A stretch of DNA of 64,000 bases from Minisyncoccota bacterium (lineage in GTDB: Bacteria; Patescibacteriota; Minisyncoccia; Phycocordibacterales; UBA9973), in NCBI GenBank assembly GCA_041664465.1, contig JBAYKP010000004.1, forward strand, positions 6,876 to 70,875, written 5' to 3'. The position numbers and the translations under genes were made by a program. Position 1 is the first letter of the stretch. Each line of letters opens with the position of its first letter. The notes beneath the pieces are model-generated. The model had not been told where the DNA came from and made no database searches. It saw only the letters and a list, made by a program, of their open reading frames with translations. This document shows positions 2,635 to 50,000 of this stretch, piece after piece.

Positions 2635-2644
2635 ATTAATAAGG

Positions 2645-2742
2645 CATTTCCTCCTCTCCTTACTAAGGAGAGGACCGAGGAGAGGTGAATTAATTAAGAA
2701 CCCCCTCTCAGTCTCCCCCTTGGTAAGGGGGAGAGGGAATCA
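2645..2742. repeat. Copy R1 of a multi-hairpin palindromic element (about 98 bp) in the rpoB-rpoC spacer
   Basis: Hairpin tcctctcctt-act-aaggagagga, then a core gagaggtgaattaattaagaacc, then hairpin ctccccctt-ggt-aagggggag. The 23-nt core reappears exactly, reverse-complemented, inside uvrB (copy R4). Confidence 0.8.
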
Positions 2743-2755
2743 ACAAACATAATAT

Positions 2756-5700
2756 ATGAAAATAATAGATACAACAGATTTCGATTCAATAACACTCAAG
2801 CTTGCTTCTCCTGAGAGAATAAAGGAATGGTCATACGGAGAAGTGACAAAGCCAGAAACTATCAACTATCGTACCGGTCGCTCCGAACGCTCAGGTCTCT
2901 TCGACGAAAGAATTTTCGGTCCAGAGAAAGATTACGAATGTTACTGTGGTAAATACAGAAGAATTCGTTACAAAGATATAATTTGTGAAAAATGTGGAGT
3001 GGAAGTTACTCGCTCTATCGTTCGCCGTGACAGAATGGGGCATATAGAGCTAGCATCCCCAGTATCGCATATTTGGTTCCTACGTGGGGTGCCAAGCCGC
3101 ATGTCTACGCTTCTCAATATCTCAGTCTCAGACTTGGAGAAAGTTATTTATTTTGCAGGATATATAGTAGTCAGTGTCTCAGCAACTGAAAAAGAAACTA
3201 TCACCAAGAATCTAGAAAGTGAATTCAAATCAAAAATCAAAAGTGCCAATAATGAAGAAGAAAAAGAAAAACTTAAAGAATTATTACTCAATACCAAGCG
3301 TGAGATATCTGAAATCGTCTTAGGTAAAGTCTTAAACGAGATAGCTTATCACCACTACGGACTCAAATACGGAAGTTGTTTCGAAGCAAGTATTGGAGCT
3401 GAGGCTATCTTCACTATCTTTAAGAATCTAGATTTAGAAAAATTGAAGACAGAGACGGCGGCAATGCTTCCAAAAGCCAGCAGTATAGATAAAGAAAAAT
3501 TGGAGAAGAGGATGTCCCTTATCCGCTCAATGATTCACTCTGGTATCAGACCTGAGTGGATGTTCCTCACTGTTATCCCAGTTATCCCTCCTGCTCTTCG
3601 TCCGATGGTGGCTCTTGATGGTGGGCGTCACGCGACTTCCGACTTGAACGATTTATATAGAAGAGTTATAAACAGAAATAATCGTCTTAAGAAATTAAAA
3701 GAAATTGGGGCTCCAGATGTGATTCTAAGAAATGAGAAAAGAATTTTGCAAGAAGCGGTAGATGCTCTGATAGATAACTCCATCGCCAAGCAGAATGATT
3801 CTCAAGCTGTCTCGGCTTCTCAGAAGCGTGCGCTCAAATCTCTTTCAGATAATTTAAAATCAAAGCAAGGTTTATTCCGTCAGAATTTGCTTGGTAAGCG
3901 TGTGGACTATTCCGGACGTTCCGTGATCGTCGTTGGTCCAGGATTGAAGCTCAATCAATGCGGACTTCCAAAGCATATGGCACTTGAACTTTTCAAACCT
4001 TTCGTAATTTCCAAAATATTAGAGACCGAGCTTGCTTTCAATATTCGTGGTGCCAATAGACTAATAGAAGAAGGCACGCCAGAAGTCTGGGCAATACTTG
4101 AAGAAGTAATCAGGGGGAAGTATGTGCTTCTAAACCGTGCACCAACACTTCACAGACTTGGTATTCAAGCCTTTAATCCTATCCTTATAGAAGGTCACGC
4201 TATTCAAGTGCATCCACTTGTCTGTGCCGGATTCAACGCCGACTTTGACGGGGACCAGATGGCTGTCTACGTACCGCTTGGAGAAATGGCTCAAATGGAA
4301 GCAAAAGAATATATGGCTTCCAATAAAAATTTATTGAAACCGCAAGATGGATCACCGATCGTAATGCCGAAGATGGATATCGTCCTTGGTTGTTACTGGA
4401 TGACAAAAGGAGTAGATGGCGAACGTGGAGAAGGTATGGCATTTGCAAGTCCAAACCAAGCTATTACAGCTTTTGATCTAGGAGTCATTACTTTCCGTGC
4501 CAAGATTAAAGTCCTAGGAACTGAGAAAGCTCGCTATGCAAAATTTGCAGATAAACCTTTTGAGACGACTGTCGGTAAATTATTCTTCAATAGTATTTTC
4601 CCTGATGACTTCCCATACATAGAAGATGAGATTACTATCAAGCGTATGTCGCTCCTTGTAGATGAGCTCATCGTCCACTATGGTATAGATGCTACTCCAA
4701 AATTCTTGGATAAAATTAAAGATTTCGGTTATCAATATGCGACCTACTCAGGGGTGACTTGGGGTATTGATAATGTGACAGTGCCAGCTGGCAAGAAAGA
4801 GATTGTGGCTAAGTTCCGTAAAGAAGAAGAAGTTGTCCGTGATCAATATGCCGAAGGACTCCTCTCAGAAGAAGAGCAATATCAAAAAGTTATTGAGATA
4901 TGGGAACACGCCAAGAAAGAAATTGAAAAGATAATTCCTGCCACTTTGGATACGAAGGGTTCCACCTATGATCTTGTGACCTCTGGCGCTCGAGGTAGTA
5001 TGGGGTCTCTCATTCAGATGTGTGGAATGAAAGGACTCATTGTGAATACTTCCGGTGCGACTCTTGACTTCCCAATCATCCCTTCATACATTGAAGGACT
5101 TTCACCACTTGAATATTTCATCACGACTCACGGTTCTCGTAAGGGTGCCGCCGACACGGCCTTAAATACGGCTAAAGCTGGTTACCTTACACGACGTCTA
5201 GTGGATGTAGCGCAAGATGTTGTCGTAACAGAGGAAGATTGTGGCACGAAGAATGGCAAGACGATAGTAGCTGTCCAAGGTGCTTTCGCGAAGTATATTC
5301 ACGGACGAGTACTTCTTGCTGATATAAAAGGAGAGGATGGTAAAGTGGTATTTAAAAAGGGAACACTTATAATGAAAGAAGATGCAAGATTGTTAGAGAA
5401 AATGGGAGTGAAAGAAGCTCTCGTCCGCACGCCACTTTCTTGTGAGACGACTCACGGTATATGTCGTATTTGTTATGGTCTTGATTTGGGGCGAAATACA
5501 ATGATAGAGCTAGGACAAGCCGTTGGTATCATCGCGGCGCAAGCTATCGGTGAGCCAGGAACCCAGCTGACACTTCGTACTTTCCACGCGGGTGGAGTCG
5601 CGACTGTGGATATCACGACAGGACTTCCTCGTGTTGAAGAAATTTTCGAAAGAAGAATTCCGAAGAATCCAGCTATTATATCTCAGACTGATGGCGAAGT

Positions 5701-10280: not shown

Positions 10281-11555
10281 ATGGATTCGTTATATACCGT
10301 TATATTCTATGTTTTTTCCTTCATTTCTGTATACGTACAGATCTTTTTTTTAGTGACATTTTTCGATAAAAGGCGTCATATTAAGTGGAGTCCTAATAAT
10401 ATAGAACTCTCTTCATACCCCACTATTACTATTGCTGTCCCTGTTTATAATGAAGAATCTACCATCATCAAAACAGTAGAATCTCTCCTTGCGCTAGATT
10501 ATCCGAAAGATAAATTGAAGATTTTCATAGTAGATGATGGAAGTAAGGATAATACTTGGAATGTAGTACAAGAATTTAAAGATAATCCCAATATTGTCCT
10601 CCTGCAAAAAGAAAATGGTGGTAAACACACAGCTATCAATCTGGCCTTAGAGAAAAGTGATTCCGAATTCTTTGGATGTCTTGACTCAGATTCTTTTGTT
10701 CACAATCAGACTCTGAAAAGAATTATGAGATATTTTGAGAATGATCCTAGGAATATGGCTGTCATTCCATCAGTCTTAAGTCACGACCCAAAGAATATAA
10801 TTCAGAACGCACAGAAAGTTGAGTATGATATGGGTGTCTATATCAAGAAAATGCTAGGACTCATCGGTGGTATCCAAGTCACCCCCGGACCTCTTTCTAC
10901 TTTTCGGAAAAAAGTTTTTGATGATTTAGGACCTTACAAGAAAGCTCACAATACAGAAGATCAAGAGATAGCTCTCCGAATGCAAGAGCATGGATACAAA
11001 ATAGATTACTGTCCAGATGCATATGTCTATACTAATACACCCAATTCCATCATCAAGCTTTATAGGCAACGCTTGCGATGGATTTATGGTTTCATTAAGA
11101 ATCTCGTAGATTATCGTCATTTATTATTTAGGAAAAAGTATGGGACCGTCGCTTTGTTCACATTGCCGACTGGCTTGATATCCATATTGGGGATAGTCTT
11201 TGTATTCTTTACTCTTATTTACAATTTTATAAAATTTACTTATATCAAAATAATCCAGATACAGACTATTGGTTTCAACAATTTTTTCAGTTTAAATTAC
11301 AAATTTGACTGGTTTTTCATCAATACAAGGGCGATGTTGTTTTTATCTATCATTTTGTATATACTGGTCATTGTATCAGTAATGATTGGTAGGAAAATGT
11401 CCACCGGAAAGGCGAATTTCTCTCTTTCCATAATTTATTTTAGTATTATTTATAGTGTAATAGCGCCATTTTGGATGCTCCGAGCGATATACAACTCTCT
11501 CATTTCCAAGGAGTCTAGCTGGACGTTTGAACGCCGTGTTACCCCAAACAATTAA
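10281..11555 (+). CDS. Processive family-2 beta-glycosyltransferase (cellulose/chitin/PNAG-synthase-like) with C-terminal transmembrane helices
   Basis: 424 aa. Motifs DDGSKDNT, DSDS, TED and QRLRW (the QxxRW signature of processive GT2 synthases), followed by several hydrophobic helices. Confidence 0.75.
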   Translation: MDSLYTVIFYVFSFISVYVQIFFLVTFFDKRRHIKWSPNNIELSSYPTITIAVPVYNEESTIIKTVESLLALDYPKDKLKIFIVDDGSKDNTWNVVQEFKDNPNIVLLQKENGGKHTAINLALEKSDSEFFGCLDSDSFVHNQTLKRIMRYFENDPRNMAVIPSVLSHDPKNIIQNAQKVEYDMGVYIKKMLGLIGGIQVTPGPLSTFRKKVFDDLGPYKKAHNTEDQEIALRMQEHGYKIDYCPDAYVYTNTPNSIIKLYRQRLRWIYGFIKNLVDYRHLLFRKKYGTVALFTLPTGLISILGIVFVFFTLIYNFIKFTYIKIIQIQTIGFNNFFSLNYKFDWFFINTRAMLFLSIILYILVIVSVMIGRKMSTGKANFSLSIIYFSIIYSVIAPFWMLRAIYNSLISKESSWTFERRVTPNN

Positions 11556-13696: not shown

Positions 13697-13757
13697 CCAC
13701 ATGTCCGACATAGGGTCTTTAGTTTTTTAAAGTTTTGCTCCTATGTCGGACATGTGG
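13697..13757. promoter_or_regulatory. 18-bp perfect inverted repeat in the rpsB-tsf spacer (ccacatgtccgacatagg / cctatgtcggacatgtgg, 25-nt loop)
   Basis: The arms run 13697-13714 and 13740-13757. Each arm is itself nearly palindromic (catgtc-c-gacatg). The element sits between the rpsB stop and the tsf start on the transcribed strand. Confidence 0.6.
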
Positions 13758-17762: not shown

Positions 17763-19027
17763 TGAAAAATTTTGATTTTAAAATTGAAAAGAAAATCCCA
17801 AATTTTTTGGGGAGAGCTGGGGTCATTAGTACACCGCATGGAGATATAGAGACTCCATCTTTTGTTGTTGTGGGTACGAAAGGTACAGTGAAGTCTTTGA
17901 CAGTAGAGCAATTGAGAGAAATTGGCACCCCAGTGGTACTGGCGAATACTTATCACTTGTACTTACAGCCAGGGGATGAGCTTATAAGAGATGCGGGGGG
18001 CTTACATAAATTTATGAATTGGCAAGGTCCCTTGATGACTGACTCTGGAGGATTCCAAGTATTCTCGTTAGGAGTAGCATATGGCAAAGAAATTTCTAAA
18101 GTAGTTTCTGTTACTGACCCAAGTCTTCTTATTCCTGAGAGGTCAATAGCAGAAGATGGAGTACCCAGACTTGCAACTATAGGCAATGATGGAGTATCTT
18201 TCCGCTCACATATAGATGGCTCACTTCATTATATAACTCCCGAGAAGTCTATAGAAATTCAGCATAATTTAGGGGCGGATATTATTTTTGCTTTTGATGA
18301 GTGCACATCACCAACAGAGAATGATAGATATCAAGATGAAGCACTTTCTCGCACACATGCTTGGGCAAAGAGGAGTTTGGTAGAGCATAAAAAGAGGGAA
18401 GAGGGGAATAAATTCCCCCAAGCGCTTTTTGGTATTGTTCAAGGCGGGCGGTCAGAAGAACTCAGGAGGAAGTCTGCAAAAATTATTTCTGGAATTAAGA
18501 TAGAGGATGGAATGGACCCCGTGACGGGTGAAGCCCGTTTTACGGGGTTCGATGGATATGGTATCGGTGGTTCTTTTGCCAAGGAAGATATGTCGAGTGC
18601 TGTGAAGTGGGTGAATGAAGAACTTCCCGAAGAGAAGCCTCGGCACTTACTTGGTATTGGGGAGCCGGAGGATTTATTGTCAGGAGTAGAAAATGGGGTA
18701 GATTTATTTGATTGCGTAGGGCCTACTCGTATTGCTCGTAATGGAACTTTGTTTACAAAGAATGGTAAGATAAATATATCAAATGCAAAATTTGTAAAAG
18801 ATTTTGACAAGTTAGATGAAGGATGTGAGTGTTATACTTGTAGGAATTATACGAAGAGTTATTTGTCTCATTTATTTCGTGCCAAAGAAATGCTCGGAGC
18901 AACTCTTGCATCAATACACAATGTGTATTTTATAACTAACTTAGTGAAGAAAATGCGTGGGGCGATAATAGAGGGTACATTTTCAGAATTTAAAAAAGAA
19001 TTTTTAAAGGGATATTTAAAAGAGTAA
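17762..19027 (+). CDS. tgt: Queuine tRNA-ribosyltransferase
   Basis: 421 aa. TGT motifs (LMTDSGGFQVFSL, catalytic Asp region) and a C-terminal zinc site CxCxxC...H (CECYTCRNY...H). Confidence 0.9.
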   Translation: MKNFDFKIEKKIPNFLGRAGVISTPHGDIETPSFVVVGTKGTVKSLTVEQLREIGTPVVLANTYHLYLQPGDELIRDAGGLHKFMNWQGPLMTDSGGFQVFSLGVAYGKEISKVVSVTDPSLLIPERSIAEDGVPRLATIGNDGVSFRSHIDGSLHYITPEKSIEIQHNLGADIIFAFDECTSPTENDRYQDEALSRTHAWAKRSLVEHKKREEGNKFPQALFGIVQGGRSEELRRKSAKIISGIKIEDGMDPVTGEARFTGFDGYGIGGSFAKEDMSSAVKWVNEELPEEKPRHLLGIGEPEDLLSGVENGVDLFDCVGPTRIARNGTLFTKNGKINISNAKFVKDFDKLDEGCECYTCRNYTKSYLSHLFRAKEMLGATLASIHNVYFITNLVKKMRGAIIEGTFSEFKKEFLKGYLKE

Positions 19028-19039
19028 AACCTTTTCTGT

Positions 19040-19127
19040 ATTTAAAGTCCCCTTGATAAGGGGGATTAGGGGGTTTGAATTAAGAAATCTAAACCCCTCC
19101 CGACCTCCCCTTATCAGGGGAGGAGGA
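19040..19127. repeat. Copy R2 of the multi-hairpin palindromic element (about 88 bp, near-perfect overall palindrome)
   Basis: Hairpins ccccttgataagggg and ccccttatcagggg flank the stem agggggttt...aaacccct around a gaattaag core. The element lies just after the tgt stop. Confidence 0.8.
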
Positions 19128-19168
19128 AATGCGAATACAATATTAAAAATAAGTGTTATAATAATTTT

Positions 19169-19564
19169 ATGAAAGATTACAGAGGAACTATAATTGAAGA
19201 AAGTTTGGATAATAAAGGTGTATTAAAGAAAGTACAAATTTTAAGTACAAAAGTTGAAAGTATCACAGATAAACACAAAACTCCGTGGCTTAAGCAATGG
19301 ACGTTACATTTTGCATTAATTCCAGAGAATGAGGCAGAAAATATCGCCTTAGAAATAAGTAAATCTTTTGATAAAGAACACGCTAGTTGGTATGCTGATT
19401 ATCGAAATAAAACTCATCATTATATTATTTTCCCAAACAAAATTTTCTATATTAAAAGAGATAATATAGAGCAATACAATCAAGCAAAACAATATGGACT
19501 CTCGCTTGGTATTCCAGAATATCAAGTAGATTTTCATCCTGATATTAAAGAATGGGAGAAGTAA
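19169..19564 (+). CDS. Hypothetical protein
   Basis: 131-aa ORF with no recognisable motif. Confidence 0.3.
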   Translation: MKDYRGTIIEESLDNKGVLKKVQILSTKVESITDKHKTPWLKQWTLHFALIPENEAENIALEISKSFDKEHASWYADYRNKTHHYIIFPNKIFYIKRDNIEQYNQAKQYGLSLGIPEYQVDFHPDIKEWEK

Positions 19565-19965
19565 TTTTTTTGTTTATGAAATTTATTTTATATAATAAAA
19601 AACTTGTTTCTCGTGCTAGAGAATTAAGAAAAAATAGAACAGAAGCGGAAATTATATTTTGGAATAAAGTTTTGAAAGATAAAGAAGTAACAAGTTATAA
19701 ATTTACCCAACAAAAACCTCTTGGAGATTTTATTGCTGATTTTTATTGTTCTAAACTTTTATTGGTTGTTGAAATTGATGGAGAAATACACAATGAACTA
19801 AAAGGAAGAGACAAAGAAAGGTCCGAGATTCTTCTTTATAAATATGGTATAAAGGTAATTAGATACCAAAATGATAACGTCTTAAATAATATTGAAAAGG
19901 TTATTGGTGATTTTAAAAATGAAATGAAATTACGAGAAAAATACTTAAAATTAAAGGGTATTTAA
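19552..19965 (+). CDS. DUF559 / Vsr-like (PD-(D/E)xK) endonuclease-domain protein
   Basis: 137 aa. LRKNRTEAEIIFWNKVL...DFYCSKLLLVVEIDGEIH...KERSEIL...GIKVIRY matches the DUF559 very-short-patch-repair-like endonuclease fold. Confidence 0.65.
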   Translation: MGEVIFLFMKFILYNKKLVSRARELRKNRTEAEIIFWNKVLKDKEVTSYKFTQQKPLGDFIADFYCSKLLLVVEIDGEIHNELKGRDKERSEILLYKYGIKVIRYQNDNVLNNIEKVIGDFKNEMKLREKYLKLKGI

Positions 19966-20005
19966 AGTCCCACTGATAAGGGGGATTTAGGGGGTTTAAA
20001 GTATT
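19958..20005. repeat. Copy R3: half-unit of the palindromic element (shared with the left half of R2), flanked by tttaaagt direct repeats
   Basis: gtatttaaagtcccactgataagggggatttagggggtttaaagtatttaaac compared with the R2 left arm gtatttaaagtccccttgataagggggattagggggttt. Confidence 0.65.
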
Positions 20006-20014
20006 TAAACTATT

Positions 20015-22249
20015 ATGAAAAATAAAGTATTCAAATTGAAGAGCAATTATAAGCCTGATGGTGATCAGCCGAAGGCGATTTCACAGTTGCTGGAAGGCTT
20101 AGAAAAGGGTATGAAGAAGCAGACTCTCCTTGGTGCAACGGGGACAGGCAAGACTTTCACTATTGCCAATGTGATAGAGAAGTGGAACAAGCCGACGTTG
20201 GTAATAGCTCACAATAAGACTCTTGCTGCTCAGCTTGCTCAGGAATTCAGAGAATTTTTCCCTGATGCGGCAGTACACTACTTCGTATCTTATTATGATT
20301 ACTACCAGCCGGAAGCTTATATGCCTATTACAGATACCTATATAGAGAAAGATGCTCAGATAAATAAAGAGATAGATCGTCTCCGCCATGCTACCACGCA
20401 GTCACTTCTGACTCGTCCAGATGTGATTATTGTGGCATCTGTGTCTTGTATATATGGATTAGGAAGTCCGGAAGAGTACGAAAAGGTAAATTTGAAACTG
20501 GAAATCGGCTCGAAGATTGGGAGGACTGATCTGATGAGAAGATTACTTGGGATACATTTTGAAAGAACGAATGCAGATCTCAATCCTGGCACTTTCAGAT
20601 CTATTGGGGACAGAGTCGAAGTGATGCCAATATCTGAGACTTTTGTATATCAAATCGAATTTTCTTCCCCTAGGCACGGCCTAGGGGAGAGTGTTGTTTC
20701 TAAAATTTTGAAAGTTGATCCAGTTTCTGCACATGTACTTAAAGAAGAGAAAAGCCTGCCCGACGGCAAGGCGGGTATTTTCTTATTCCCCGCCAAGCAT
20801 TTCATTACCGATGATGAAAGTACGAAAACTGCTATCAAGAATATTAAATTAGAACTTGCACAGCAATTAAAGAAGTTTGAGAAAGAAGGTAAATTACTTG
20901 AAGCCGAGAGAATTAAAAGAAGGACGAATTATGATTTGGCTATGATTAAAGAAGTGGGTTATTGCAATGGCATAGAGAATTATTCTAGACAGTTTTCTGG
21001 GAAAAAAGAAGGGGAAGCACCGGATACATTACTTTCTTATTTTAAAAATAATTTTCTGACTATTATTGATGAATCTCATGTGACTTTGCCTCAACTTGGC
21101 GGAATGTATGCTGGTGATGCATCACGCAAGAATACTTTGGTAGAGTTCGGTTTCCGTCTTCCTTCTGCGAAAGATAATCGCCCGCTCAAATATAATGAAT
21201 TTGAAGAAAGAATTGGAGACGTGATATATGTATCTGCGACGCCGAGTGAACAGGAAAGGACTATGAGTAATCAGGTAGTTGAGCAGATTATTCGCCCTAC
21301 AGGGCTTATAGATCCAGAGATATTGGTGAAGCCAGTGAGTGTGGGAGTTCCTCCCCTCCTTACTAAGGAGGGGACTAAGGGGAGGTTCTTAATTAATTCA
21401 CCTCTCCCTGACCCTCTCCTTGCAAAGGAGAGGGGGAATTCATACCCTGGTCAAATTGAAGATTTTATAAAAGAAGCGGATAGAGTTATTAAGAAAGGGT
21501 TTAGGGCGATAGCGACAACCTTGACGAAGAAGATGGCGGAAGATTTGAGCTTGTTCTTGAAAGAGAAAGGATATAAAGCAGAATATCTGCATAGTGATAT
21601 TAAAACTATAGAGAGAATTCAAATATTAACCCAGTTTAGAAAAGGGGACTTTGATATTTTGATCGGAGTGAATTTGCTTCGTGAGGGTCTTGATCTTCCG
21701 GAGCTTGCTCTCATAGGAATTTTAGATGCAGACAAAGAAGGATTCTTACGATCTACTACATCCCTAATTCAGATTATCGGCCGTGCAGCGAGAAATGTCG
21801 AAGGAAGGGTTGTGCTCTATGCCGATCATATGACGAAGTCCCTCGAAAGTGCGATAGATGAAACAACGAGAAGAAGAAATATACAGATAGCTTACAATAA
21901 GAAGCATGGCATTACTCCTGCGACGATTATTAAAAAGATTAAAGATATTACAGAAGAGCTTGAAGATAAGCATGGCAAGGCAGTGAACGCCGAACTTGAT
22001 CTAGATGTGGAATTATTTAAGAAAGCATTTGGAGCAAGTAAAAGTAATAAGGGTAAAGGTGAGAGAGAGTCAATAAAGAATCTACTCCTCTCAGATGAAG
22101 ATAGGAATAAAAATGTTTACGAAAAGATAATAAAGATAAAAGAGAAAGAAATGAATAAAGCGGTGAAGGAACTAGACTTTGAAACCGCGGCAATATTGAG
22201 AGATGAGATAGTGGTGTTGAAAAGTAAAAAGGCCACAACTGTTGAGTGA
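20015..22249 (+). CDS. uvrB: Excinuclease ABC subunit B, carrying an in-frame 37-codon insertion derived from a palindromic element
   Basis: 744 aa. Helicase motifs (GATGTGKTF, DESHVT), a beta-hairpin region, a C-terminal UVR domain (DFETAAILRDEIVVLK) and a TGA stop. Confidence 0.93.
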   Translation: MKNKVFKLKSNYKPDGDQPKAISQLLEGLEKGMKKQTLLGATGTGKTFTIANVIEKWNKPTLVIAHNKTLAAQLAQEFREFFPDAAVHYFVSYYDYYQPEAYMPITDTYIEKDAQINKEIDRLRHATTQSLLTRPDVIIVASVSCIYGLGSPEEYEKVNLKLEIGSKIGRTDLMRRLLGIHFERTNADLNPGTFRSIGDRVEVMPISETFVYQIEFSSPRHGLGESVVSKILKVDPVSAHVLKEEKSLPDGKAGIFLFPAKHFITDDESTKTAIKNIKLELAQQLKKFEKEGKLLEAERIKRRTNYDLAMIKEVGYCNGIENYSRQFSGKKEGEAPDTLLSYFKNNFLTIIDESHVTLPQLGGMYAGDASRKNTLVEFGFRLPSAKDNRPLKYNEFEERIGDVIYVSATPSEQERTMSNQVVEQIIRPTGLIDPEILVKPVSVGVPPLLTKEGTKGRFLINSPLPDPLLAKERGNSYPGQIEDFIKEADRVIKKGFRAIATTLTKKMAEDLSLFLKEKGYKAEYLHSDIKTIERIQILTQFRKGDFDILIGVNLLREGLDLPELALIGILDADKEGFLRSTTSLIQIIGRAARNVEGRVVLYADHMTKSLESAIDETTRRRNIQIAYNKKHGITPATIIKKIKDITEELEDKHGKAVNAELDLDVELFKKAFGASKSNKGKGERESIKNLLLSDEDRNKNVYEKIIKIKEKEMNKAVKELDFETAAILRDEIVVLKSKKATTVE
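21337..21447 (+). repeat. Copy R4: palindromic element inserted in-frame in uvrB (encodes SVGVPPLLTKEGTKGRFLINSPLPDPLLAKERGNSYP)
   Basis: Hairpins cccctcctt-act-aaggagggg and ccctctcctt-gca-aaggagaggg surround the core ggttcttaattaattcacctctc, which is the reverse complement of the R1 core. The flanking residues (LIDPEILVKPV / GQIEDFIKE) line up with the uninterrupted UvrB consensus (DPxIxVRP / GQIDDL). Confidence 0.75.
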
Positions 22250-22467: not shown

Positions 22468-25266
22468 ATGCGGGGACTGTTTAAATTTATGAAAAAAAAC
22501 GAAGAAGCAAAAATAATAATAAAAGGGGCTCGGACGCACCCCGAAGGAAAGAGTACTTCCTACGGGGCAGGCAATTTGAATATGGTTGATAAAATAGTTA
22601 TTCGAGGTGCTCGTACCCACAATTTAAAAAACATTTCTGTCGAAATGCCTCGGAATAAGATGATAGTAATTACTGGGATGTCAGGCTCTGGGAAGAGTTC
22701 TTTGGCCTTTGATTCTATCTTCGCCGAAGGTCAGAGGCGTTATGTGGAGAGTCTTTCAGCTTATGCTCGCCAATTCCTCAATCAAATGCCGAAGCCGGAT
22801 GTAGATGAGATTACAGGTCTTTCACCAGCTATCTCTATAGACCAGAAGTCACGTTCCAACAACCCTCGTTCGACAGTTGCAACTATCACTGAGATATATG
22901 ATTATCTTCGTGTTCTTTATGCGCGTATTGGACATCCTCATTGTCCTCTCTGCGGAGAAGAGATAAAAAAGTTATCAAATGATGAGATACTTCATTTTGC
23001 AATAGATAAGATAAAGAATTTTCAAAAAGATACAAAGAAAAACCCCGTAAAAAAGCAAAGCTTTAACGGGGCAAGGAAAGTTTTAGGCGTTGAATGGAAT
23101 GAAGCTCCCGTGTCTATTCTTGCCCCAGTTGTGAGAGGCAGAAAAGGTGAATATTATCAACTTCTTTATGATTTACTCAATAAAGGCTTTGCGCAAGTTA
23201 GACTTGATGGAGAGATAAAGAAATTGAGAGAAAGAATAGATATTTCTAAAACTAAGAAGCATGACATAGAAGTTATTGTGGATAGTTTCCAAATTCATGA
23301 ATTTAAAGATAATGAAAAGGATTCTTATTCACGTTTAGCTGAGAGTGTCGAGAGAGCTTTGCTCGAATCAGATGGCTTAGTGATAATTAAAATAGATGAA
23401 GAGGAGTACCTTATGTCTTCCAAGTTTTCTTGTGCTAATGACGGCTTTGCTTTCCCCGAGATAGAGCCAAGATTATTTTCTTTCAATTCTCCTTATGGAG
23501 CATGTCCAACTTGTAATGGTCTCGGGACAAAATATTTCGGCGGAGATGAAGCTTGTGATGATTGTAAGGGTCTTCGTCTTCGTACTGAAGCATTGCATGT
23601 GTACCTTGGTGAAAGCGCTTCGCAGAAACATCAAAATTCTTCCCGCTTTACCCTAAAGGGCTCCGACGCGGATAAGAATTTTGATTTTTCTGCTCCGCTT
23701 AACATCGTGGGTGTGACGCAATTATCAATTTCCGATGTTGCGGATTATTTCATTGAGTTAGAATTAAGCGATCAAGAGAAAGAAATTTCAAAAGTTATAA
23801 TAAAAGAGATAGAAGCTCGTCTTCAGTTCTTATTAAACGTTGGTCTTGATTATCTGTCTCTTGACAGAAAGGCCAATACGCTTTCTGGTGGTGAGGCTCA
23901 GCGCATACGTCTCGCTTCGCAACTCGGTTCACGACTTGTAGGAGCACTCTATGTGCTTGATGAACCGACGATAGGATTACATCAGAGAGATAATGATAAA
24001 TTAATTAAAACATTAGAAGACCTTCGTGATTTGGGTAATACTATTATAGTGGTAGAGCATGATGAAGATACTATCTTTGCGTCGGATTATATAGTAGATA
24101 TAGGACCTAAAGCCGGAGTTCACGGCGGGGAAGTGATAGTCTCTGGGTATCTTGATGAGTTACTTGATGCGAAGACTAATGCATCCAAGTCTAGAACTTT
24201 GGCTTATTTACGTAATGAAGCTCGGATAGAAATTCCAGAGAAGAGAAGAACGAGCGACAAAGGAACTTTGAAGATAGTCGGAGGGAAAATTTTCAATATT
24301 GATAATCTAAATGCTGAAGTGCCACTTGGCAAGCTTGTAACTATTACTGGAGTATCAGGAAGTGGCAAGAGTTCCTTCATGTATGAAATCTTACATAAAA
24401 ATCTACAAGCAAGATACGAGAGAAAGTTTCGAACCGCGAAAGTTTTCAACTGTGCATCTTTCACTGGTACAGAATATCTTTCTCGTGTCGTTCTCATAGA
24501 TCAGTCTCCAATAGGTAGGACACCTCGATCAAATATTGCTACCTATACAGGAGCTTTCACTCATATCCGTGATATGTTTGCATTGAGCGAAGAAGCACGT
24601 TTGAAAGGCTGGAAAGCTAATAGATTCTCTTTCAATGTAAAAGGTGGGAGATGTGAAGCTTGTGAAGGGAATGGTGAAGTCGCAGTTGAAATGCACTTCT
24701 TGCCAACAGTCTACGTGACTTGTGATGTTTGTAATGGCAAGAGATTCGATAAGGAAACTTTGACGGTAAAATACAAAAAGAAAAATATTTATGAAGTTTT
24801 GCAAATGACGGTAGAGGAAGCTTTTACTTTTTGGGAAGATATACCAGCAGTTTACGATAGGATGAAGACACTTATGGATGTAGGACTTGGCTATGTGAAG
24901 CTTGGCCAATCAGCGACGACCCTTTCAGGTGGAGAGGCTCAGCGTGTTAAAATTTCTACAGAGCTTTATAAGCCATATTGGGAGAAGACGATCTATTTAC
25001 TTGATGAGCCGACTGTTGGATTGCATTATGATGATGTGGCTAAATTGCTGGAAGTATTGAATAGACTTGTAGAGAAAGGTAATAGTGTAGTGGTGATAGA
25101 GCACAATATGGATATTATCAAATCATCTGACTATATTATAGATATAGGGCCAGAAGGAGGACTCTCTGGTGGGAAAATTGTTGCCAAAGGCACGCCGGAA
25201 GAAGTTGCTAATACGCCATCTTCCCATACGGGGAAATATTTGAAGAAAGTATTGAGAAAAAAATAA
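22468..25266 (+). CDS. uvrA: Excinuclease ABC subunit A (probable true start at ATG 22582)
   Basis: 932 aa. Two ABC ATPase modules ([18 protein letters not shown]; LSGGEAQR twice) and zinc-finger cysteine clusters. The canonical N-terminus [17 protein letters not shown] begins at codon 39. Confidence 0.93.
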
Positions 25267-26514
25267 ATGGATACAAATTCTGCCATGGCAGAATTTGTAT
25301 CCATAAAAAATATGAAAATACAAGATTTAAAAAAATTAAGAATTCCAGATAAATCAGGAGTCTATTTCTTTCTTAAATCAGCTAGGCAAGGCCTAGCTGA
25401 AAAGAATATTCTTTATATTGGTAAAGCTACCTCACTTCGGGATAGGGTAAAGAGCTATTTTTCTAAGGATTTAATCAATACTAGAGGTCCGGCTATTTTA
25501 GACATGACAGTAAGGGCAGATAATATAGAGTGGCAGGAGACAGATAGCGTCCTTGAAGCTTTGATATTAGAGGCGAATTTGATAAAGAAATATAAGCCGA
25601 AATATAATACGAAAGAGAAAGACAATAAGAGCTTTAATTATGTTTGTATTAACAAAGACGTTCCTTCAAAAATTTTGGTTGTTCGAGGCAGGAATTTGGA
25701 TAAAAGTTTATATAAGAATATTTTTGGACCTTTTCCGAATGGTAATTTATTAAAAGAAGGAATGAAAATAATCAGAAGAATATTTCCATATTTTGATTAT
25801 GATTCAAATAAAAAGAATAATAAAGAATTTTATAGACAGATAGGACTTGTTCCTAAAAATGAATATAATGAAAATATAAAAAATATTAAACTTCTTTTTC
25901 AAGGCAAGAAAAAAAGTATTATAAAAAATCTTAAAGCAAGAATGACTTATTTTTCAAAACTAAAAGATTTTGAAAATGCAGCACGAATTCGAGATCAAAT
26001 ATATGCGTTAAATCATATTAATGACATTTCGCTAATAAAAGATGAAATATATGGAAGTCCAACTTCCATATATAGAATAGAAGCATATGACGTTGCTCAT
26101 ATGAGTGGCAAGAATATGGTAGGGGTAATGACAGTAGTAGAAGGAGAGGAAGTAAATAAAAATGAATATAGGAAATTTATAATACGAACACAAAATGATG
26201 CCAATGATACCGGAGCCCTCGAAGAAATTATTTCTCGTCGATTGAGACATACAGAATGGGGGTTGCCCAATTTGATAGTGGTGGATGGAAGCATCGCACA
26301 GGTGAATGTCGCGAAGAGGGTACTTGGTCGTTATCAATTTGATATACCAATCGTAGGGGTGGTGAAAGACGAACATCATAGACCGAAGGCTATAATGGGT
26401 GATGAAAAGATAATTAAAGCTTATAAAAAGGAGATTCTACTTGCCAATAATGAAGCTCATAGATTTGCTATAACTTTTCACAAACAAAAGAGAAATAAAA
26501 GCTTTTTAAAATAA
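25267..26514 (+). CDS. uvrC: Excinuclease ABC subunit C, short form lacking the C-terminal (HhH)2 domain
   Basis: 415 aa. GIY-YIG domain (GVYFF...ILYIGKATSLRDRVKSYF, EALILEANLIKKYKPKYN), UVR domain (ENAARIRDQIYALNHI) and RNase-H-like endonuclease domain (RIEAYDVAHMSG...VVDGSIAQ...EAHRFAITFHKQKR). The gene stops immediately after that last domain. Confidence 0.8.
   Translation: MDTNSAMAEFVSIKNMKIQDLKKLRIPDKSGVYFFLKSARQGLAEKNILYIGKATSLRDRVKSYFSKDLINTRGPAILDMTVRADNIEWQETDSVLEALILEANLIKKYKPKYNTKEKDNKSFNYVCINKDVPSKILVVRGRNLDKSLYKNIFGPFPNGNLLKEGMKIIRRIFPYFDYDSNKKNNKEFYRQIGLVPKNEYNENIKNIKLLFQGKKKSIIKNLKARMTYFSKLKDFENAARIRDQIYALNHINDISLIKDEIYGSPTSIYRIEAYDVAHMSGKNMVGVMTVVEGEEVNKNEYRKFIIRTQNDANDTGALEEIISRRLRHTEWGLPNLIVVDGSIAQVNVAKRVLGRYQFDIPIVGVVKDEHHRPKAIMGDEKIIKAYKKEILLANNEAHRFAITFHKQKRNKSFLK
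25269..25302. repeat. 34-bp perfect palindrome ggatacaaattctgccatggcagaatttgtatcc at the uvrC 5' end (contains the start ATG)
   Basis: The sequence equals its own reverse complement and encodes DTNSAMAEFVS. A second copy lies inside miaA. Confidence 0.9.
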
Positions 26515-34171: not shown

Positions 34172-35713
34172 ATGGCGCTAAACAAACCAAACAAAATTCA
34201 GATAATAAAATATGCTCCACCACCACCAGATCTGCCGACGTTGGGTAGAGTAGATCCAAGTGATGTTGCTTTCATTGGCCGTACAAATTATGTTGCTTCT
34301 CTTGAAGAAAAGAGGTTTGTTTTCGGTATCAAGCGTATAGACCGTAGACGTCATATGTACATCATTGGTAAATCTGGAGTTGGTAAATCTAAACTTCAAG
34401 AATTAATGATTCGCCAAGATATTGCTTATGGGCATGGTGTCTGTATTATTGATCCACACGGTGAGCTCATAGAAGATATTTTGAATTTTATCCCAGAAGA
34501 AAGAATCGAAGACGTCTGCGTAATAGATCCGGGAGATATTGATTTCCCTTCATCCTTTAATCCGCTTGCCAATATTGACCCAACTTTCAAACATCAACTT
34601 ACTCAAGGGTTGATAGAAGTTCTCCGTAAGCAGTTCGGAGCGAACTGGACGCCACGTCTAGAGCACGTTTTTCGTTTTACGGTTCTTGCCTTGCTTGACT
34701 ATCCATTTGCGACAATGCGCGGAATGATAAGTATGCTAACTGATCGTAATTATCGTCAGAAAGTGGTGGAGTATATAGAAGACGACATGGTCAAAAGATT
34801 CTGGGCTATAGAATTCGCTGACTGGTCTGAGAAGTTTGATACGGACGCCATCATTCCTTTGGTGAACAAGCTTGGGCAATTCCTTTCTGATCCAATGCTC
34901 CGAAATATTTTCGGACAGAAAGAAAATAAAATAGATCTAGAACAAATAATGAATGAGCAGAAGATTCTGATGATTAATCTTTCTAAGGGTAAGATTGGTG
35001 AAGAGAACTCATCTTTCTTTGGAGCGATGTTCCTTACCAAGATCAAGCAGGCTGGTATGGCTCGTGCCAAGCTTGAGCCGAAAGATCGTGCGGACTTTTA
35101 TGTTTATGTGGATGAGTTCCAAAACATTGTGACAGATACATTTGAGAACATTCTTTCAGAGGCTCGTAAGTATGGATTGAACCTCATTATCGCTCACCAG
35201 TATATAGCGCAGTTATTACCGAAAGTTCAGCAAGCTGTCCTTGGTAATGTGGGCTCCATAGTGACATTCCGTGTTGGAGGTGATGATGCTACGAAGTTGA
35301 AGCCCGAGTTCGCACCAGTCTTTGATGTGAAAGATATGATTAATCTTGGAGTTGGAGAATTTTATATTAAGATGACGATTGATGGAGAAAGTTATGATCC
35401 GTTTTCAGGAGAGACATTGAAAGTTCTTCCCGCGACACATCCTTCTTATAGGCAAAGAGTTATAGAAGCTTCACGTCGCAAATATTCTATCCCTGCTGGT
35501 GACGCTCAGCGTTTGATAGCCGAAGAAGAAGCCACTATCATCCGTAGTGCTCAAGAAAAGGCTGCAATCACTGGCAAGAAAGGAAAAAGTGAAGAATCTA
35601 ATGAAGAAGAGGAAAACAATAAAGAAGAAAATGATGAAATAGAAAATAAAGAAGAACAAAAAAGCAAACCAAAACCTAAAAAAGAAGAAAAAGGCGGCGA
35701 GCCATTAATCTAA
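34172..35713 (+). CDS. Soluble P-loop ATPase, TraD/VirD4 (type IV coupling protein)-like, of the FtsK/HerA superfamily
   Basis: 513 aa. Walker A IIGKSGVGKS, Walker B YVYVDEFQN, a T4CP-like AHQYIAQL motif, and an acidic low-complexity C-terminus. No transmembrane helix. Confidence 0.5.
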   Translation: MALNKPNKIQIIKYAPPPPDLPTLGRVDPSDVAFIGRTNYVASLEEKRFVFGIKRIDRRRHMYIIGKSGVGKSKLQELMIRQDIAYGHGVCIIDPHGELIEDILNFIPEERIEDVCVIDPGDIDFPSSFNPLANIDPTFKHQLTQGLIEVLRKQFGANWTPRLEHVFRFTVLALLDYPFATMRGMISMLTDRNYRQKVVEYIEDDMVKRFWAIEFADWSEKFDTDAIIPLVNKLGQFLSDPMLRNIFGQKENKIDLEQIMNEQKILMINLSKGKIGEENSSFFGAMFLTKIKQAGMARAKLEPKDRADFYVYVDEFQNIVTDTFENILSEARKYGLNLIIAHQYIAQLLPKVQQAVLGNVGSIVTFRVGGDDATKLKPEFAPVFDVKDMINLGVGEFYIKMTIDGESYDPFSGETLKVLPATHPSYRQRVIEASRRKYSIPAGDAQRLIAEEEATIIRSAQEKAAITGKKGKSEESNEEEENNKEENDEIENKEEQKSKPKPKKEEKGGEPLI

Positions 35714-36577: not shown

Positions 36578-38854
36578 ATGGAAAATGAAATTCCACACAA
36601 TCGTGACATCACTTATTTTGGTAAGACGAACTTTCGTAGTAGCAATACTATTTTCGGTATAAAAAGGAAAGACCGTCGTCAGCATATGTATATACTTGGT
36701 AAGTCAGGTACTGGTAAGTCTGTTCTTCTCTCTAATCTTATTTCTCAAAATATCCAAAATGGCGAAGGCGTCTGCGTCGTAGACCCTCACGGAGAAACAG
36801 TAGAAGAGATTCTCCATCTCATTCCTGATCACAGAGTTAAAGATGTTATATACTTCAATCCAGCTGATACGGACTTTCATATTGGCTTCAATGTCATTCA
36901 GCTTGATGATCCAAAGTACAAGCACTTGGTGGCTTCGGGGCTTATGGGGATTTTCACGAAGATTTGGGCGAATGCGTGGAGTTCAAGAATGGAATACATC
37001 CTAAACAATGCAATTCTTGCTTTGCTTGATACACCTGGTACAACGCTTCTCGGAATTCCTCGTCTTCTAGTGGACAAGGATTATCGTCAGATGATAATTG
37101 GCAATCTGAAAGATCCAGTAGTCAAAGCTTTCTGGGTCCACGAGTATGAGCAATGGCGTGAACAGTTCCGAAATGAAGCCATCGCTCCGATTCAGAACAA
37201 AGTAGGACAGTTCCTTTCTACTTCTATTATTCGTAATGTTGTCGGTCAGCCGAAATCCACTATTGATATTTTTGACATAATGAATAGTGGGAAAATTTTC
37301 CTTGTGAACGTTTCAAAGGGGCGTATCGGTGAAGACAATTCGGCTCTCCTCGGTGGTATGATTATTACCAAGATTCAGCTTGCTGCGATGGAGCGTGTAC
37401 GTATACCTGAGGACGAACGTAAAGACTTTTATTTATATGTCGATGAATTCCAGAACTTTGCTACAGATGCGTTTGCCAATATTCTTTCTGAGGCTCGCAA
37501 ATACCGTTTGAATCTTACTGTCGCCCACCAGTATACTGCTCAGCTTGAGAATAAAGATGGCTCGAAAGTTCGTGATGCTGTCTTTGGCAACGTCGGCACC
37601 ATGATCATTTTTCGTGTAGGAGGAGATGATGCTGAATTTTTAGAGAAAGAATTTGAGCCTGAATTCACAGCACTAGATTTAGTGAATTTACCGAACTATC
37701 ATATTTATATAAAGCTTATGATTGATGGAGTGACGAGTCGTCCATTCTCTGCGGTGACGTTGCCGCCACTTAAAGTTGATTTATCACTAGGAGTTAAAGA
37801 TAAAATTATAGAATCTTCTAGGAAGCTTTATACTCGTCCTCGTAAAGAAGTTGAAGATGAGATATCACGATGGAGTGGAATGCTTCAAGTGGGAGATGGT
37901 GAAGCGAAATATAAGGCTGATTGTTCAAACTGTGGAAAAGTTACGATGGTGCCTTTTGAGCCTCAGGAGGGTAGACCAGTTTACTGTAAAGAATGTATGT
38001 TTAAAATTAAGAGTGGAGAATTGAAGCCTGAGACTGGATTCATCGCTTCACGTTCATCTCGTCAAGAAGAGAAAGTTTCTACTGAACCTTTGGCTGCACT
38101 TGGTATAGAATTCGGGGTGACAGATAAGAATTTTAGAGTTTCCAAGAATCAAGAACAGACAAAAAATTCTGCCCCGATCAATATGGATACGAATCATCAC
38201 AATGGCCATATAAAATCTAATAATCTAGGAGGAAATATTAGTAACAATAATAATTATAAAAATAATTTTGTAAAACAAGAAAGGAGGCATACAGGTCCTT
38301 CTCCACTTTTGAAAGGATTATTGCAGAAAATAGGTATAAATAATGACAAAAAAGTAGATGAAGCTCCTAAAATAGAAGCCGTCGAAATTAAGAAAGAAGT
38401 ACCAGCTCCGATGTCTTTAGAATCTTTAAAAGCAAAAACAAATGAAGAAATTAAAAAGGATTTTGTAATACCAGCCAAGGAAGCATCCGAAGAAAAGAAA
38501 GCATCTTTGAAAGATTTGCTTGAAAAGACAGCAAATCATAATTTCCCAAAGGAAAGTCATTTGGAGGAAAAAGAAAAGGCTCAGGTTGCTTCGCAACCTG
38601 AGCCAGAAGTTAAAATTCCTGAGCCAGAAGTCATTTCACCAGTTCCTCAAAAAGAAGACAAGGTAGAGGCTGCTCCACAGGAAAATCTTTTTGAGAGGTC
38701 CTCGGATGAGGGAGGACAAGGTGCCAGACCATCTCAAAAAGACATTCCTGTTTCGCAACCAAAGCCCGAAACAAAATCAGATGCTGATTCTTGGCAGAAA
38801 CGTAAGATAAAGAAAGAAGTTCCAGAAGATGTGCTTCGTAAAGTATTAGAATAA
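36578..38854 (+). CDS. Soluble TraD/VirD4-like P-loop ATPase (paralog of 34172-35713) with a C-terminal CxxC...CxxC zinc ribbon and a long disordered tail
   Basis: 758 aa. Walker A ILGKSGTGKS, Walker B LYVDEFQN and AHQYTAQL, then CSNCGKVTMVPFEPQEGRPVYCKEC, then a low-complexity K/E/P-rich tail with PEPEV repeats. Confidence 0.5.
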   Translation: MENEIPHNRDITYFGKTNFRSSNTIFGIKRKDRRQHMYILGKSGTGKSVLLSNLISQNIQNGEGVCVVDPHGETVEEILHLIPDHRVKDVIYFNPADTDFHIGFNVIQLDDPKYKHLVASGLMGIFTKIWANAWSSRMEYILNNAILALLDTPGTTLLGIPRLLVDKDYRQMIIGNLKDPVVKAFWVHEYEQWREQFRNEAIAPIQNKVGQFLSTSIIRNVVGQPKSTIDIFDIMNSGKIFLVNVSKGRIGEDNSALLGGMIITKIQLAAMERVRIPEDERKDFYLYVDEFQNFATDAFANILSEARKYRLNLTVAHQYTAQLENKDGSKVRDAVFGNVGTMIIFRVGGDDAEFLEKEFEPEFTALDLVNLPNYHIYIKLMIDGVTSRPFSAVTLPPLKVDLSLGVKDKIIESSRKLYTRPRKEVEDEISRWSGMLQVGDGEAKYKADCSNCGKVTMVPFEPQEGRPVYCKECMFKIKSGELKPETGFIASRSSRQEEKVSTEPLAALGIEFGVTDKNFRVSKNQEQTKNSAPINMDTNHHNGHIKSNNLGGNISNNNNYKNNFVKQERRHTGPSPLLKGLLQKIGINNDKKVDEAPKIEAVEIKKEVPAPMSLESLKAKTNEEIKKDFVIPAKEASEEKKASLKDLLEKTANHNFPKESHLEEKEKAQVASQPEPEVKIPEPEVISPVPQKEDKVEAAPQENLFERSSDEGGQGARPSQKDIPVSQPKPETKSDADSWQKRKIKKEVPEDVLRKVLE

Positions 38855-43796: not shown

Positions 43797-43852
43797 ATAA
43801 TTAAGAAATGAGTAAGGCAAGACCTTACTCAAAATAAGGATATTTTTAATAT

Positions 43853-49775: not shown

Positions 49776-50000
49776 TGTGGGCGATGGAGGGGAACCGCGA
49801 GTACGCTTTCGGTCACAAGTATTTTTCTGCTGAAAAATCTCGCGACCCCGACTCGGCTCGTCAGCCTCCGTCTTCCGATTCCTCCATCTAAAAAATCTAT
49901 GATACTATCATAGATTTTTTCCTGCGGGCGATGGAGGAATCGGACCCCCGCCAAAGCGTTTGGAGTGCTTTGTACTACCATTATACTAATCGCCCTTGTG
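49776..50000. ncRNA. GC-rich structured element of unknown class (candidate small RNA or repeat)
   Basis: A local GC rise. The motif gggcgatggagg occurs twice (49789, 49927). A 15-bp stem tccgattcctccatc/gatggaggaatcgga encloses the 31-bp AT palindrome aaaaaatctatgata-c-tatcatagatttttt. An alternative pairing of cctccatc with the upstream gatggagg is possible. gggcgat near 49788 and atcgccc near 49990 are complementary. Confidence 0.35.

Follow-up and report, generated by a model that had tools for sequence, protein, structure and literature searches.

The uvrB gene analyzed here raises the question of what a palindromic DNA segment is doing inside the reading frame of a nucleotide excision repair (NER) gene, and how it came to be there. 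We put at about three in four the probability that it is a non-autonomous palindromic mobile element, comparable to REPINs and to the Rickettsia palindromic elements (RPEs), translated as a tolerated loop of UvrB.

A palindromic insert in an intact uvrB gene

In the window (the whole stretch of 64,000 nucleotides that was analyzed), uvrB is a single intact ORF of 744 aa on the forward strand (20015..22249), and the first-pass annotation was right that the frame is preserved and no stop introduced. The insert occupies codons 442-478, at 21338..21448 on the same strand, and its peptide is SVGVPPLLTKEGTKGRFLINSPLPDPLLAKERGNSYP. It had been located inside uvrB and in frame, which holds, at 21337-21447, which is one base off. 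By phmmer against the PDB (2fdc, B. caldotenax UvrB), position 441 of the query corresponded to residue 427 and position 479 to residue 429. The 37 residues that had been described as added do take the place of a single one in B. caldotenax (K428), where the C-terminal helicase domain begins, but the net gain over sister genomes is 30 aa. Actually, their empty sites measure 42 nt from ..DP to GQI.. and the window gene has 132 nt, indicating a net insertion of 90 nt. The SV.. and ..YP at both ends of the insert are native UvrB linker. An AF2 model of the protein gave pLDDT values under 50 all along this insert between residues 427 and 429 of the B. caldotenax numbering; means of 10-residue blocks were 28-39, the lowest of a model that was poor as a whole (mean pLDDT 58, built from 46 close homologues) and too weak for a fold search or for estimating exposure.

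The element itself, hereafter family 1, runs from end to end over 21343..21441 on the forward strand, with imperfect terminal inverted repeats (..TTCC / GGAA.. here, ..ATTTCC / GGAAAT.. in most copies). It is made of three hairpins on that strand, with folding z values of -4.3 as RNA and -4.25 as DNA. The outer two (21352..21374 and 21412..21434) have perfect 10-bp stems with loops of 3 nt and show covariation, and a weaker central stem (21378..21409) surrounds the family-specific loop TCTTAATTAATTC. The organization typical of REPs was found here, with imperfect palindromes of 20-40 nt and an inverted pair around a spacer. In its ca. 95 nt a TTAATTAA loop is flanked by two hairpin units in inverted orientation, so that the element is REPIN-like in architecture, and in behavior it is RPE-like. 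These elements appear as GC-rich islands in a genome of 36% GC, and family 1 has one open frame only per orientation.

A second family-1 copy is found in the rpoB-rpoC spacer, in the opposite orientation (2643..2745, reverse strand). The uvrB repeat 21345-21438 matches 2648-2741 inverted over 94 nt at 81% identity, and a global alignment gave 76/94 matches against 48 +/- 3.3 in shuffles. The first-pass annotation had described an identical inverted core of 23 nt; the inverted copy is there and the exact common core, GGTTCTTAATTAATTCACCTCTCC, is 24 nt long. A 26-nt core probe found only these two sites in uvrB and rpoB-rpoC, with 0 expected. Two more copies had been called clearly related, one between tgt and orf131 (19040..19127) and another between a DUF559 gene and uvrB (19958..20005), both on the forward strand. 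They do share the three-hairpin layout, the second being a left half, and could be aligned with gaps at 63% (63 matches vs 44.7 +/- 3.0 shuffled), but BLAST found no match between them and the uvrB element. By sequence they form a sister family (C-type) other than family 1.

Other palindromic elements are scattered over the window. The uvrA gene contains one of another family in frame (23605..23710, forward strand; 15-residue peptide; fold z -5.35). A TraG/VirD4-like ORF carries a family-2 element in frame (NLFERSSDEGGQGARPSQK; 38653..38769, forward strand; fold z -4.4), and many orthologues have this family, in this frame, at their uvrB site. Between tsf and rpsB there is an intergenic hairpin with an 18-bp stem (13697..13757, unstranded) that is similar to family 3 as found at the uvrB linker. 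A REP-like hairpin with core TAGGCAAGGCCTA was found at 25378..25400 (unstranded); it recurs at 56731-56756 and, in variant form, at 43809-43831. The core TAGGCACGGCCTA of a second in-frame perfect hairpin of uvrB itself (20666..20688, forward strand; peptide SPRHGLG; fold z -5.3), absent from B. caldotenax UvrB, resembles this last group.

Dispersed copies and turnover at the uvrB linker

We scanned metagenomes in an unbiased way with the 19-nt core of family 1 as query. Of 47 matches, 4 were due to chance and 43 were real copies, ~36 of them distinct and ~80% intergenic; together with the inverted copy in the window they leave no room for an element unique in the genome and similar by chance. 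Some copies are embedded in ORFs and in frame, namely at the same uvrB site in three further lineages, in tgt (L005 and L126), in rluA (L100) and, in reverse orientation, in ksgA (L118). The window tgt is empty at the place where that of L005 holds the element. The families of the uvrB site were also found in frame in tgt, uvrA, uvrC, polA, rluA and ksgA, and in spacers. Along the arms of the family-1 hairpins 98.3% of the cells were paired, and cells with double changes numbered 56 against 17.5 +/- 3.6 in shuffles, none of 500 reaching the observed value. The structure outscored all slid registers. As read from this covariation, the hairpins are maintained by compensatory changes.

Some leads from these searches were discarded. 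A single match in a viral contig, which could have indicated carriage by phages, was a chance match in a real protein, without hairpins. An apparent nested insertion in L096 was a tandem array of half-units, and an apparent 2.8-kb uvrB match in L005 came from the family-1 element lying in tgt, upstream of uvrB. Searching with the family-1 peptide as a profile (a dimer, to reach the minimum of 40 aa) was uninformative, with only 10 matches, the best of them short mis-called ORFs, and UvrB itself missed. In Rfam only tRNAs reached the gathering score; the sX13 and miRNA matches to the element were far below threshold.

At the uvrB linker, 120 of 198 close UvrB orthologues are occupied and 78 have no long insert (less than 10 extra aa). 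The 120 inserts sort into 21 unrelated peptide clusters, and a homologous 37-aa segment common to all orthologues does not exist. Read as DNA, 30 of 41 long inserts folded strongly into hairpins (z <= -2.5). Among the nearest relatives (88-90% overall identity), P0002 and P0003 have a different family and P0004 and P0010 are empty. Insert families are scattered over the UvrB tree, and apparent deletion footprints were detected (L017 vs L016, P0074 vs P0052). The uvrB element belongs to a repeat family whose copies lie both between and within genes, and its presence varies from one close relative to the next. The RPE-like behavior proposed for it on first inspection is supported by its spacer and in-frame genic copies, by this presence/absence among orthologues and by the intact host ORF.

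The same distribution bears on the alternative of a host-selected function, in which the insert, or the hairpin as DNA or mRNA, is kept for modulating UvrB or nucleotide excision repair, be it through a tuned repair or mutator phenotype, as an internal mRNA stabilizer or attenuator, or as a protein-protein interface. The high occupancy, the structure conserved by covariation and the presence of such inserts in uvrA, uvrB, uvrC and polA here would fit with this, and published intragenic REPs concentrate in NER/replication genes, and their authors speculated about altered repair (PMC3733652). However, the unrelated clusters and the many orthologues without a long insert argue against a specific protein function, sister taxa differ and seem to have lost inserts by deletion, and the same families are found in spacers and unrelated genes. 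Besides, our loci were centered on uvrB, and the NER enrichment apparent in these data is therefore biased. We consider a host function improbable.

By pairwise sequence identity, the family-1 element has diverged far less than the gene that hosts it. The elements of the window and L010 were 93.5% identical over 62 nt, against 72% for the host genes and 69% for the flanks, and a stretch of 65 nt is 100% identical between L073 (at site 1) and L035 (at site 2), whose genes show 72% identity. These figures, the lack of raised flank identity in same-family pairs and the shift of junctions by one codon between lineages speak for independent acquisition. The identities are also relevant to an origin in situ, from an old and fast-evolving lineage-specific linker or a local inverted duplication that would merely resemble dispersed repeats. 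The empty CPR linker is already 6 aa longer than that of B. caldotenax, and synonymous sites between these uvrB genes are near saturation, so that an old insert under no constraint would no longer look alike from one lineage to the next. Still, copies at other places in the window and in other genomes match the element at 81-94% identity, with host genes at ~72%, and the families are scattered over the tree and present at other loci. Such dispersed copies already contradict, at the sequence level, an origin in situ, which we judge very unlikely. Even harder to credit is removal before or during translation (mini-intron, RNA processing or translational bypass) leaving a UvrB without the 30 residues, to which the compact and stable fold of the element and the intervening sequences for which CPR rRNA genes are known might point, since excision would lift the pressure on length and stops, while the frame is open at every one of the 79 uvrB sites for which DNA or ORF was read (79/79 in frame, stop-free) and in 58 copies in other long ORFs, the single open frame per orientation is the one used, and no intron or other family of Rfam matched.

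We thus return to the mobile element as the preferred reading. A copy would have inserted into the short linker where the C-terminal helicase domain begins, and insertions would survive selection on uvrB only in the single open frame. Inserts of all families at this site are in frame and free of stops, and this frame conservation suggests that the insert is transcribed and translated, probably yielding a surface loop of 30 aa, rich in Pro, Lys and Gly, that is tolerated by the protein. The element would be selfish DNA with no benefit to the host.

A candidate transposase and related systems

Mobilization would probably take place in trans through single-stranded hairpin DNA, by a RAYT-type Y1 (HUH) tyrosine transposase. 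There is no transposase gene in the 64-kb window. Related genomes, however, have a RAYT-like Y1 gene, first detected with an E. coli RAYT query and confirmed by Pfam (PF01797, 39 bits) and by NCBIfam, in which the best match was NF047646, at 44 bits under a cut-off of 80. In L007, L039, L011 and L131, CTAGGTCTTGCCTAG hairpins stand on either side of this gene. Its homologues number at least 3,996, one of them named REP-associated tyrosine transposase in Patescibacteria. This RAYT-like gene, bracketed by REP-like hairpins and widespread in the clade, is a candidate. No such gene could be linked to the genome of the window, as the nearest homologues belong to other samples. In 1.7 Mb of loci there were no other IS200/IS605 TnpA-like genes, and IS608 TnpA as a query gave no match. 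The flanking hairpins belong to the family found in the window at 25378..25400 and not to that of the uvrB element, so that the RAYT-like protein is a putative cognate enzyme.

RPEs are the closest parallel in behavior. They are palindromic repeats found in spacers and in frame in genes (Ogata et al., 2000; PMC10969869), and the uvrB of R. conorii carries two palindromic units (PMC3733652). In both cases there are several families of ~100-150 nt with a consistent peptide per family, residing in spacers and in unrelated housekeeping genes of small, AT-rich, reduced genomes. The window comes from Paceibacterota, in the CPR, and Rickettsia belongs to another phylum; the likeness considered here is one of behavior. 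In contrast to RPEs, one codon-level site is used here by many families that turn over fast between close relatives, the elements stand out as GC-rich islands, and the clade has a RAYT-like gene.

In the same way, the REP/REPIN-RAYT systems (Bertels and Rainey, 2011, PMC3116915; Di Nocera et al., 2013, PMC3733652) share with our elements the short GC-rich hairpins, the mobile doublet of two inverted units and a spacer, the clusters or tandem arrays (L096 here), the lack of target duplication and the conserved Y1 transposase gene bracketed by REP-like hairpins. The hosts coincide too, the intragenic REPs published for other phyla showing a preference for uvrABC, polA and pseudouridine synthase genes (PMC3733652). 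On the other hand, the GTAG or CGTC tag, or its complement, is absent from the 35-copy family-1 consensus, the RAYT-flanking hairpins are of another family and the clade transposase falls below the curated RAYT cut-off. By definition REPs lie for the most part outside genes, while in our uvrB-centered loci (1.43 Mb, ~20 kb per genome, from 80 genomes, of which 79 are GTDB species genomes and one is that of the window) 81 of the 138 perfect hairpins rich in GC were inside long ORFs. The first-pass annotation knew of no such case in CPR-like genomes, and we found no description for CPR in the literature, but the novelty is limited by the intragenic REPs published for other phyla in uvrA, uvrB, polA and pseudouridine synthase genes.

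MITEs with in-frame fusions, such as ERIC, QMITE and Nezha (PMC10969869, PMC5896051), are also small, have terminal inverted repeats, lack coding capacity of their own and occasionally reside in frame in genes. Here, in contrast, there was no target-site duplication, the body is a set of hairpins and not just inverted ends, and in the 1.7 Mb of loci we detected no full-length insertion sequence that is related and has these ends. The coding palindromes of Nematomorpha mitochondria (PMC6649704) are long near-perfect inverted repeats translated within conserved genes. In those genes each arm codes for a conserved portion of the protein and dispersed insertions are not involved, whereas the palindromes found here are extra, dispensable loops of dispersed families.

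Repeated use of one site and its meaning

The uvrB insert is one case of a clade-wide colonization of a few codon-level sites by multiple families. The repeated use of a single codon-level site in uvrB by many of them is not accounted for by the mobile element reading, and a passive model of insertion and filtering falls short of the ~60% occupancy at one site. Junction positions shift by one codon between lineages. Neither the junctions nor the empty alleles of sites 1 and 2 showed a target motif or duplication, and no repeated flank was seen in ~30 intergenic and 6 genic copies. Transfer of alleles by homologous recombination was rejected as the source of the shared site, identity in the 150-nt flanks not being raised in same-family pairs (-0.016 vs -0.021 for other pairs). 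In the same way, a pre-existing hairpin as target was discarded, with a mean z of -0.4 in 27 empty alleles that was not distinctive. Tentatively, the uvrB linker and a few sites in uvrA, uvrC, polA, tgt and RNA-modification genes might be a landing pad, actively targeted by unrelated hairpin families. Integration would then be site- or structure-directed and frame-compatible; resident palindromes might attract newcomers, or recognition of the target might lie with a Y1 transposase. In that case passive insertion with subsequent selection would be insufficient for the pattern, and conserved genes would be where selfish DNA finds lasting refuge in the streamlined genomes of CPR bacteria.

These elements represent a neglected layer of CPR genomes. 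Most GC-rich perfect hairpins in the uvrB loci of 80 genomes lie inside long ORFs, and the variation in length of core proteins in the clade comes largely from them. There are consequences for the alignment of orthologues, MAG annotation and phylogenomics of Patescibacteria, in which variable "linkers" are mobile DNA. The behavior of RPEs, intragenic REPs and REP/RAYT-like systems is extended to a very different phylum, and the recurrent, multi-family site in uvrB offers a testable system for target choice by hairpin elements. It is also a natural experiment in the persistence of selfish DNA in genomes with almost no intergenic space.

The palindromic element of uvrB and its relatives in the window

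The window, with a GC content of 36%, is part of a metagenome contig of Candidatus Paceibacterota/Nomurabacteria (CPR). One uninterrupted ORF (20015..22249, 744 aa) makes up its uvrB, and within it positions 21343-21438 form a GC-rich island. This holds two perfect hairpins, each with a 10-bp stem and a 3-nt loop (at 21352-21374 and 21412-21434), on either side of a weaker central stem with the loop TCTTAATTAATTC, and the segment folds far above shuffled sequences (z -4.3 as RNA, -4.25 as DNA). This bears out the palindromic multi-hairpin element that the first-pass annotation had described in the uvrB frame. The inverted copy with an identical core that it placed in the rpoB-rpoC spacer was also recovered (2648-2741; 94 nt, 81%), with 76 of 94 positions matching, against 48 +/- 3.3 in shuffles, and an exact common core of 24 nt. 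The proposed kinship with the copies at 19040-19127 and 19958-20005 (C-type) holds for the three-hairpin layout, but gapped identity is only 63%, and they are a sister family. An Rfam search of the element gave no family match.

Between the C-type elements (19040-20005) lies a two-gene cassette, orf131 and a DUF559 Vsr-like endonuclease, preceded by a full C-type copy and followed by a left half. The same cassette has full copies on both sides in the related locus L011; in L039 a right half precedes it and a left half follows it. It is also listed for L004, and may have moved by recombination at the C-type element. The window also contains tandem paralogous gene pairs at 34172-35713 / 36578-38854 and 40395-42065 / 42120-43796 (repeat spacings of 2331 and 1731-1743 nt), and an inverted repeat at 49874-49944 (15-bp stem, 41-nt loop) that overlaps the 3' side of a tRNA gene (49925-49995).

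The insertion had been sized at 37 residues. In an alignment to solved structures (2fdc), UvrB residues 441 and 479 correspond to residues 427 and 429 of B. caldotenax, and the 37 residues (nt 21338-21448) stand for a single one. Within the clade the figure does not hold, since the spacing from ..DP to GQI.. is 132 nt in the window against 42 nt at empty sites, a net gain of 90 nt (30 aa). The insertion point falls where the C-terminal RecA-like domain 3 of UvrB begins. An AF2 model made from 46 close homologues was poor (mean pLDDT 58); residues 442-478 are mostly coil, below 50 throughout, and their 10-residue block means (28-39) are the lowest of this poor model.

Insert turnover at the uvrB linker

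Among the 120 best UvrB matches (75-90% identity), the linker is either short or holds very different inserts of 15-55 aa. With 79 further uvrB loci, one genome per GTDB species, we reached 198 non-identical orthologues. The linker is filled in 120 of them, the peptides form 21 clusters (11 with at least two members), and no homologous segment is common to all. Every site readable as DNA or ORF (79/79) is in frame and without stop codons. Most of the 41 long inserts available as DNA fold into long hairpins: 30 have z <= -2.5, the majority of these between -3 and -9, and folding is weak in the remaining 11 (z -2.1 to +1.0). The families are scattered over the UvrB tree built on conserved columns: of the nearest relatives of the window protein, P0002 (90% identity overall, 97% in conserved columns) carries an insert of family 3 and P0003 one of family 2, and P0004 and P0010 are empty. 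There are also apparent deletion footprints (L017 against L016, P0074 against P0052) and composite inserts (P0031, P0053, L012, L041 and the 1.5-copy P0040). Weaker uvrB hotspots were found at LSYF|FLT (29/198) and around aa 218-228. In L048 the linker region (~11360-11460) is masked with N in the genome record.

Long-tract allele transfer was rejected as the cause of the hotspot, given that same-family pairs have no excess of flank identity. An obvious target motif or duplication, and a pre-existing hairpin, were tested and rejected as well. The elements of the window and L010 are 93.5% identical over 62 nt, with uvrB genes at 72% and 150-nt flanks at 69%; L073 (at this linker) and L035 (at a second uvrB site) have 65 nt in common at 100%, in host genes 72% identical; and element junctions are shifted by one codon between lineages. 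These comparisons point to independent acquisition.

Dispersed copies in genes and spacers

A BLAST search of the linker inserts, a library biased to ORF-compatible families, against 1.43 Mb of loci gave 108 copies: 41 at the linker, 58 in other long ORFs and 9 intergenic. The further hosts include the second uvrB site, uvrA, uvrC, tgt and polA. To judge by these matches, the inserts are dispersed repeats and not local inventions. GC-rich perfect hairpins with a stem of at least 10 bp were also counted de novo: long ORFs hold 81 and the remaining DNA 57, where block-shuffled sequence gives 17. ORFs of at least 150 aa make up 88% of the DNA.

A separate hotspot for several families lies in tgt, between ..HKKxExxK and (L)PQALFGIVQGG (loci L002-L081); it is empty in the window (about 18359-18430) and hosts the window's family in frame in L005 (AFPPLLTKEGNEGRFLINQEPLPNPLLVKERG). 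The window has other in-frame palindromes: a 23-nt hairpin in uvrB (20666-20688); one of another family in uvrA (23605-23710, DNA fold z -5.35), encoding a 15-letter peptide, a family that other genomes carry in the same frame in tgt, in uvrC and at a second position in uvrA; and, in the C-terminal low-complexity tail of a TraG/VirD4-like ORF (36578..38854), a perfect 12-bp hairpin (38578-38604) and a family-2 palindrome (38653-38769, NLFERSSDEGGQGARPSQK). The tsf-rpsB spacer (13697-13757) has an 18-bp-stem hairpin resembling the family-3 inserts. At the 5' end of uvrA, 75 extra nt before NLKN (22534-22608) consist of a hairpin and the KIxIxGARTH codons repeated in diverged form. A motif scan that matched 63 other UvrA orthologues showed this segment in none of them, and translation may in fact start at the downstream ATG. 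A similar hairpin peptide lies a few codons upstream of that position in L079, L033, L080 and L035.

An unbiased scan of metagenome contigs for family 1, that of the window element, with its 19-nt core as probe, gave 47 loci. Four of them are chance matches; the others amount to about 36 distinct elements whose three-hairpin body is complete, so the element is not unique. AT-rich spacers host about 29 of these. In other lineages, three distinct copies occupy exactly the uvrB site of the window (L105, L113/L084, L123). The tgt site of L126 has one copy, an RluA-type pseudouridine synthase of L100 another, and KsgA/RsmA of L118 a third, in reverse orientation. The element has exactly one open frame per orientation, and 8 of 9 genic copies use the FLINSP frame. 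A tandem array in L096 (8340-8560), three left half-units followed by a full unit, forms a BIME-like cluster.

Covariation in 35 family-1 copies indicates that the hairpin structure is maintained: 98.3% of cells are paired, and double-change cells number 56 against 17.5 +/- 3.6 in shuffled data (0/500 shuffles reach 56). The structure outscores all slid registers, and the signal sits in the two terminal hairpins.

Possible mobilisation and relation to known elements

With an E. coli RAYT sequence as query, we found a 217-aa RAYT-like Y1 transposase ORF in seven loci (L007, at 4866-5522 on the minus strand, L003, L039, L011, L022, L089 and L126) and none in the 64-kb window. It matches Pfam Y1_Tnp at 39 bits (cut-off 23), and its best NCBIfam match is the REP-associated tyrosine transposase, which it hits at 44 bits where the cut-off is 80. 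At least 3,996 proteins belong to the family, most of them in Paceibacterota, and one is already named REP-associated tyrosine transposase. Hairpins with a CTAGGTCTTGCCTAG core lie on both sides of the gene, even in the different genomic context of L131, and the window has them at 25378, 56731 and 43809, with a variant inside uvrB. These gene-flanking hairpins belong to another family than the uvrB element, so a link between the two is something we infer.

The kind of element is already known: RPEs are in-frame insertions in many Rickettsia genes (PMC10969869), and Di Nocera et al. described, for several phyla, REPs that lie inside genes, with uvrABCD, polA, recBCD and pseudouridine synthase genes as their main hosts and two units in R. 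conorii uvrB (PMC3733652). Full-text literature searches gave no description for CPR/Patescibacteria; the first-pass annotation was likewise aware of none. Nor did we find a published case in which many unrelated families replace one another at a single codon-level site. The RPE-like reading of that annotation gains from the dispersed copies, the in-frame genic copies and the empty or differently occupied sites of relatives. We consider it probable, at roughly three chances in four, that the uvrB element is selfish DNA of REPIN/RPE-like type, translated as a loop that the protein tolerates.
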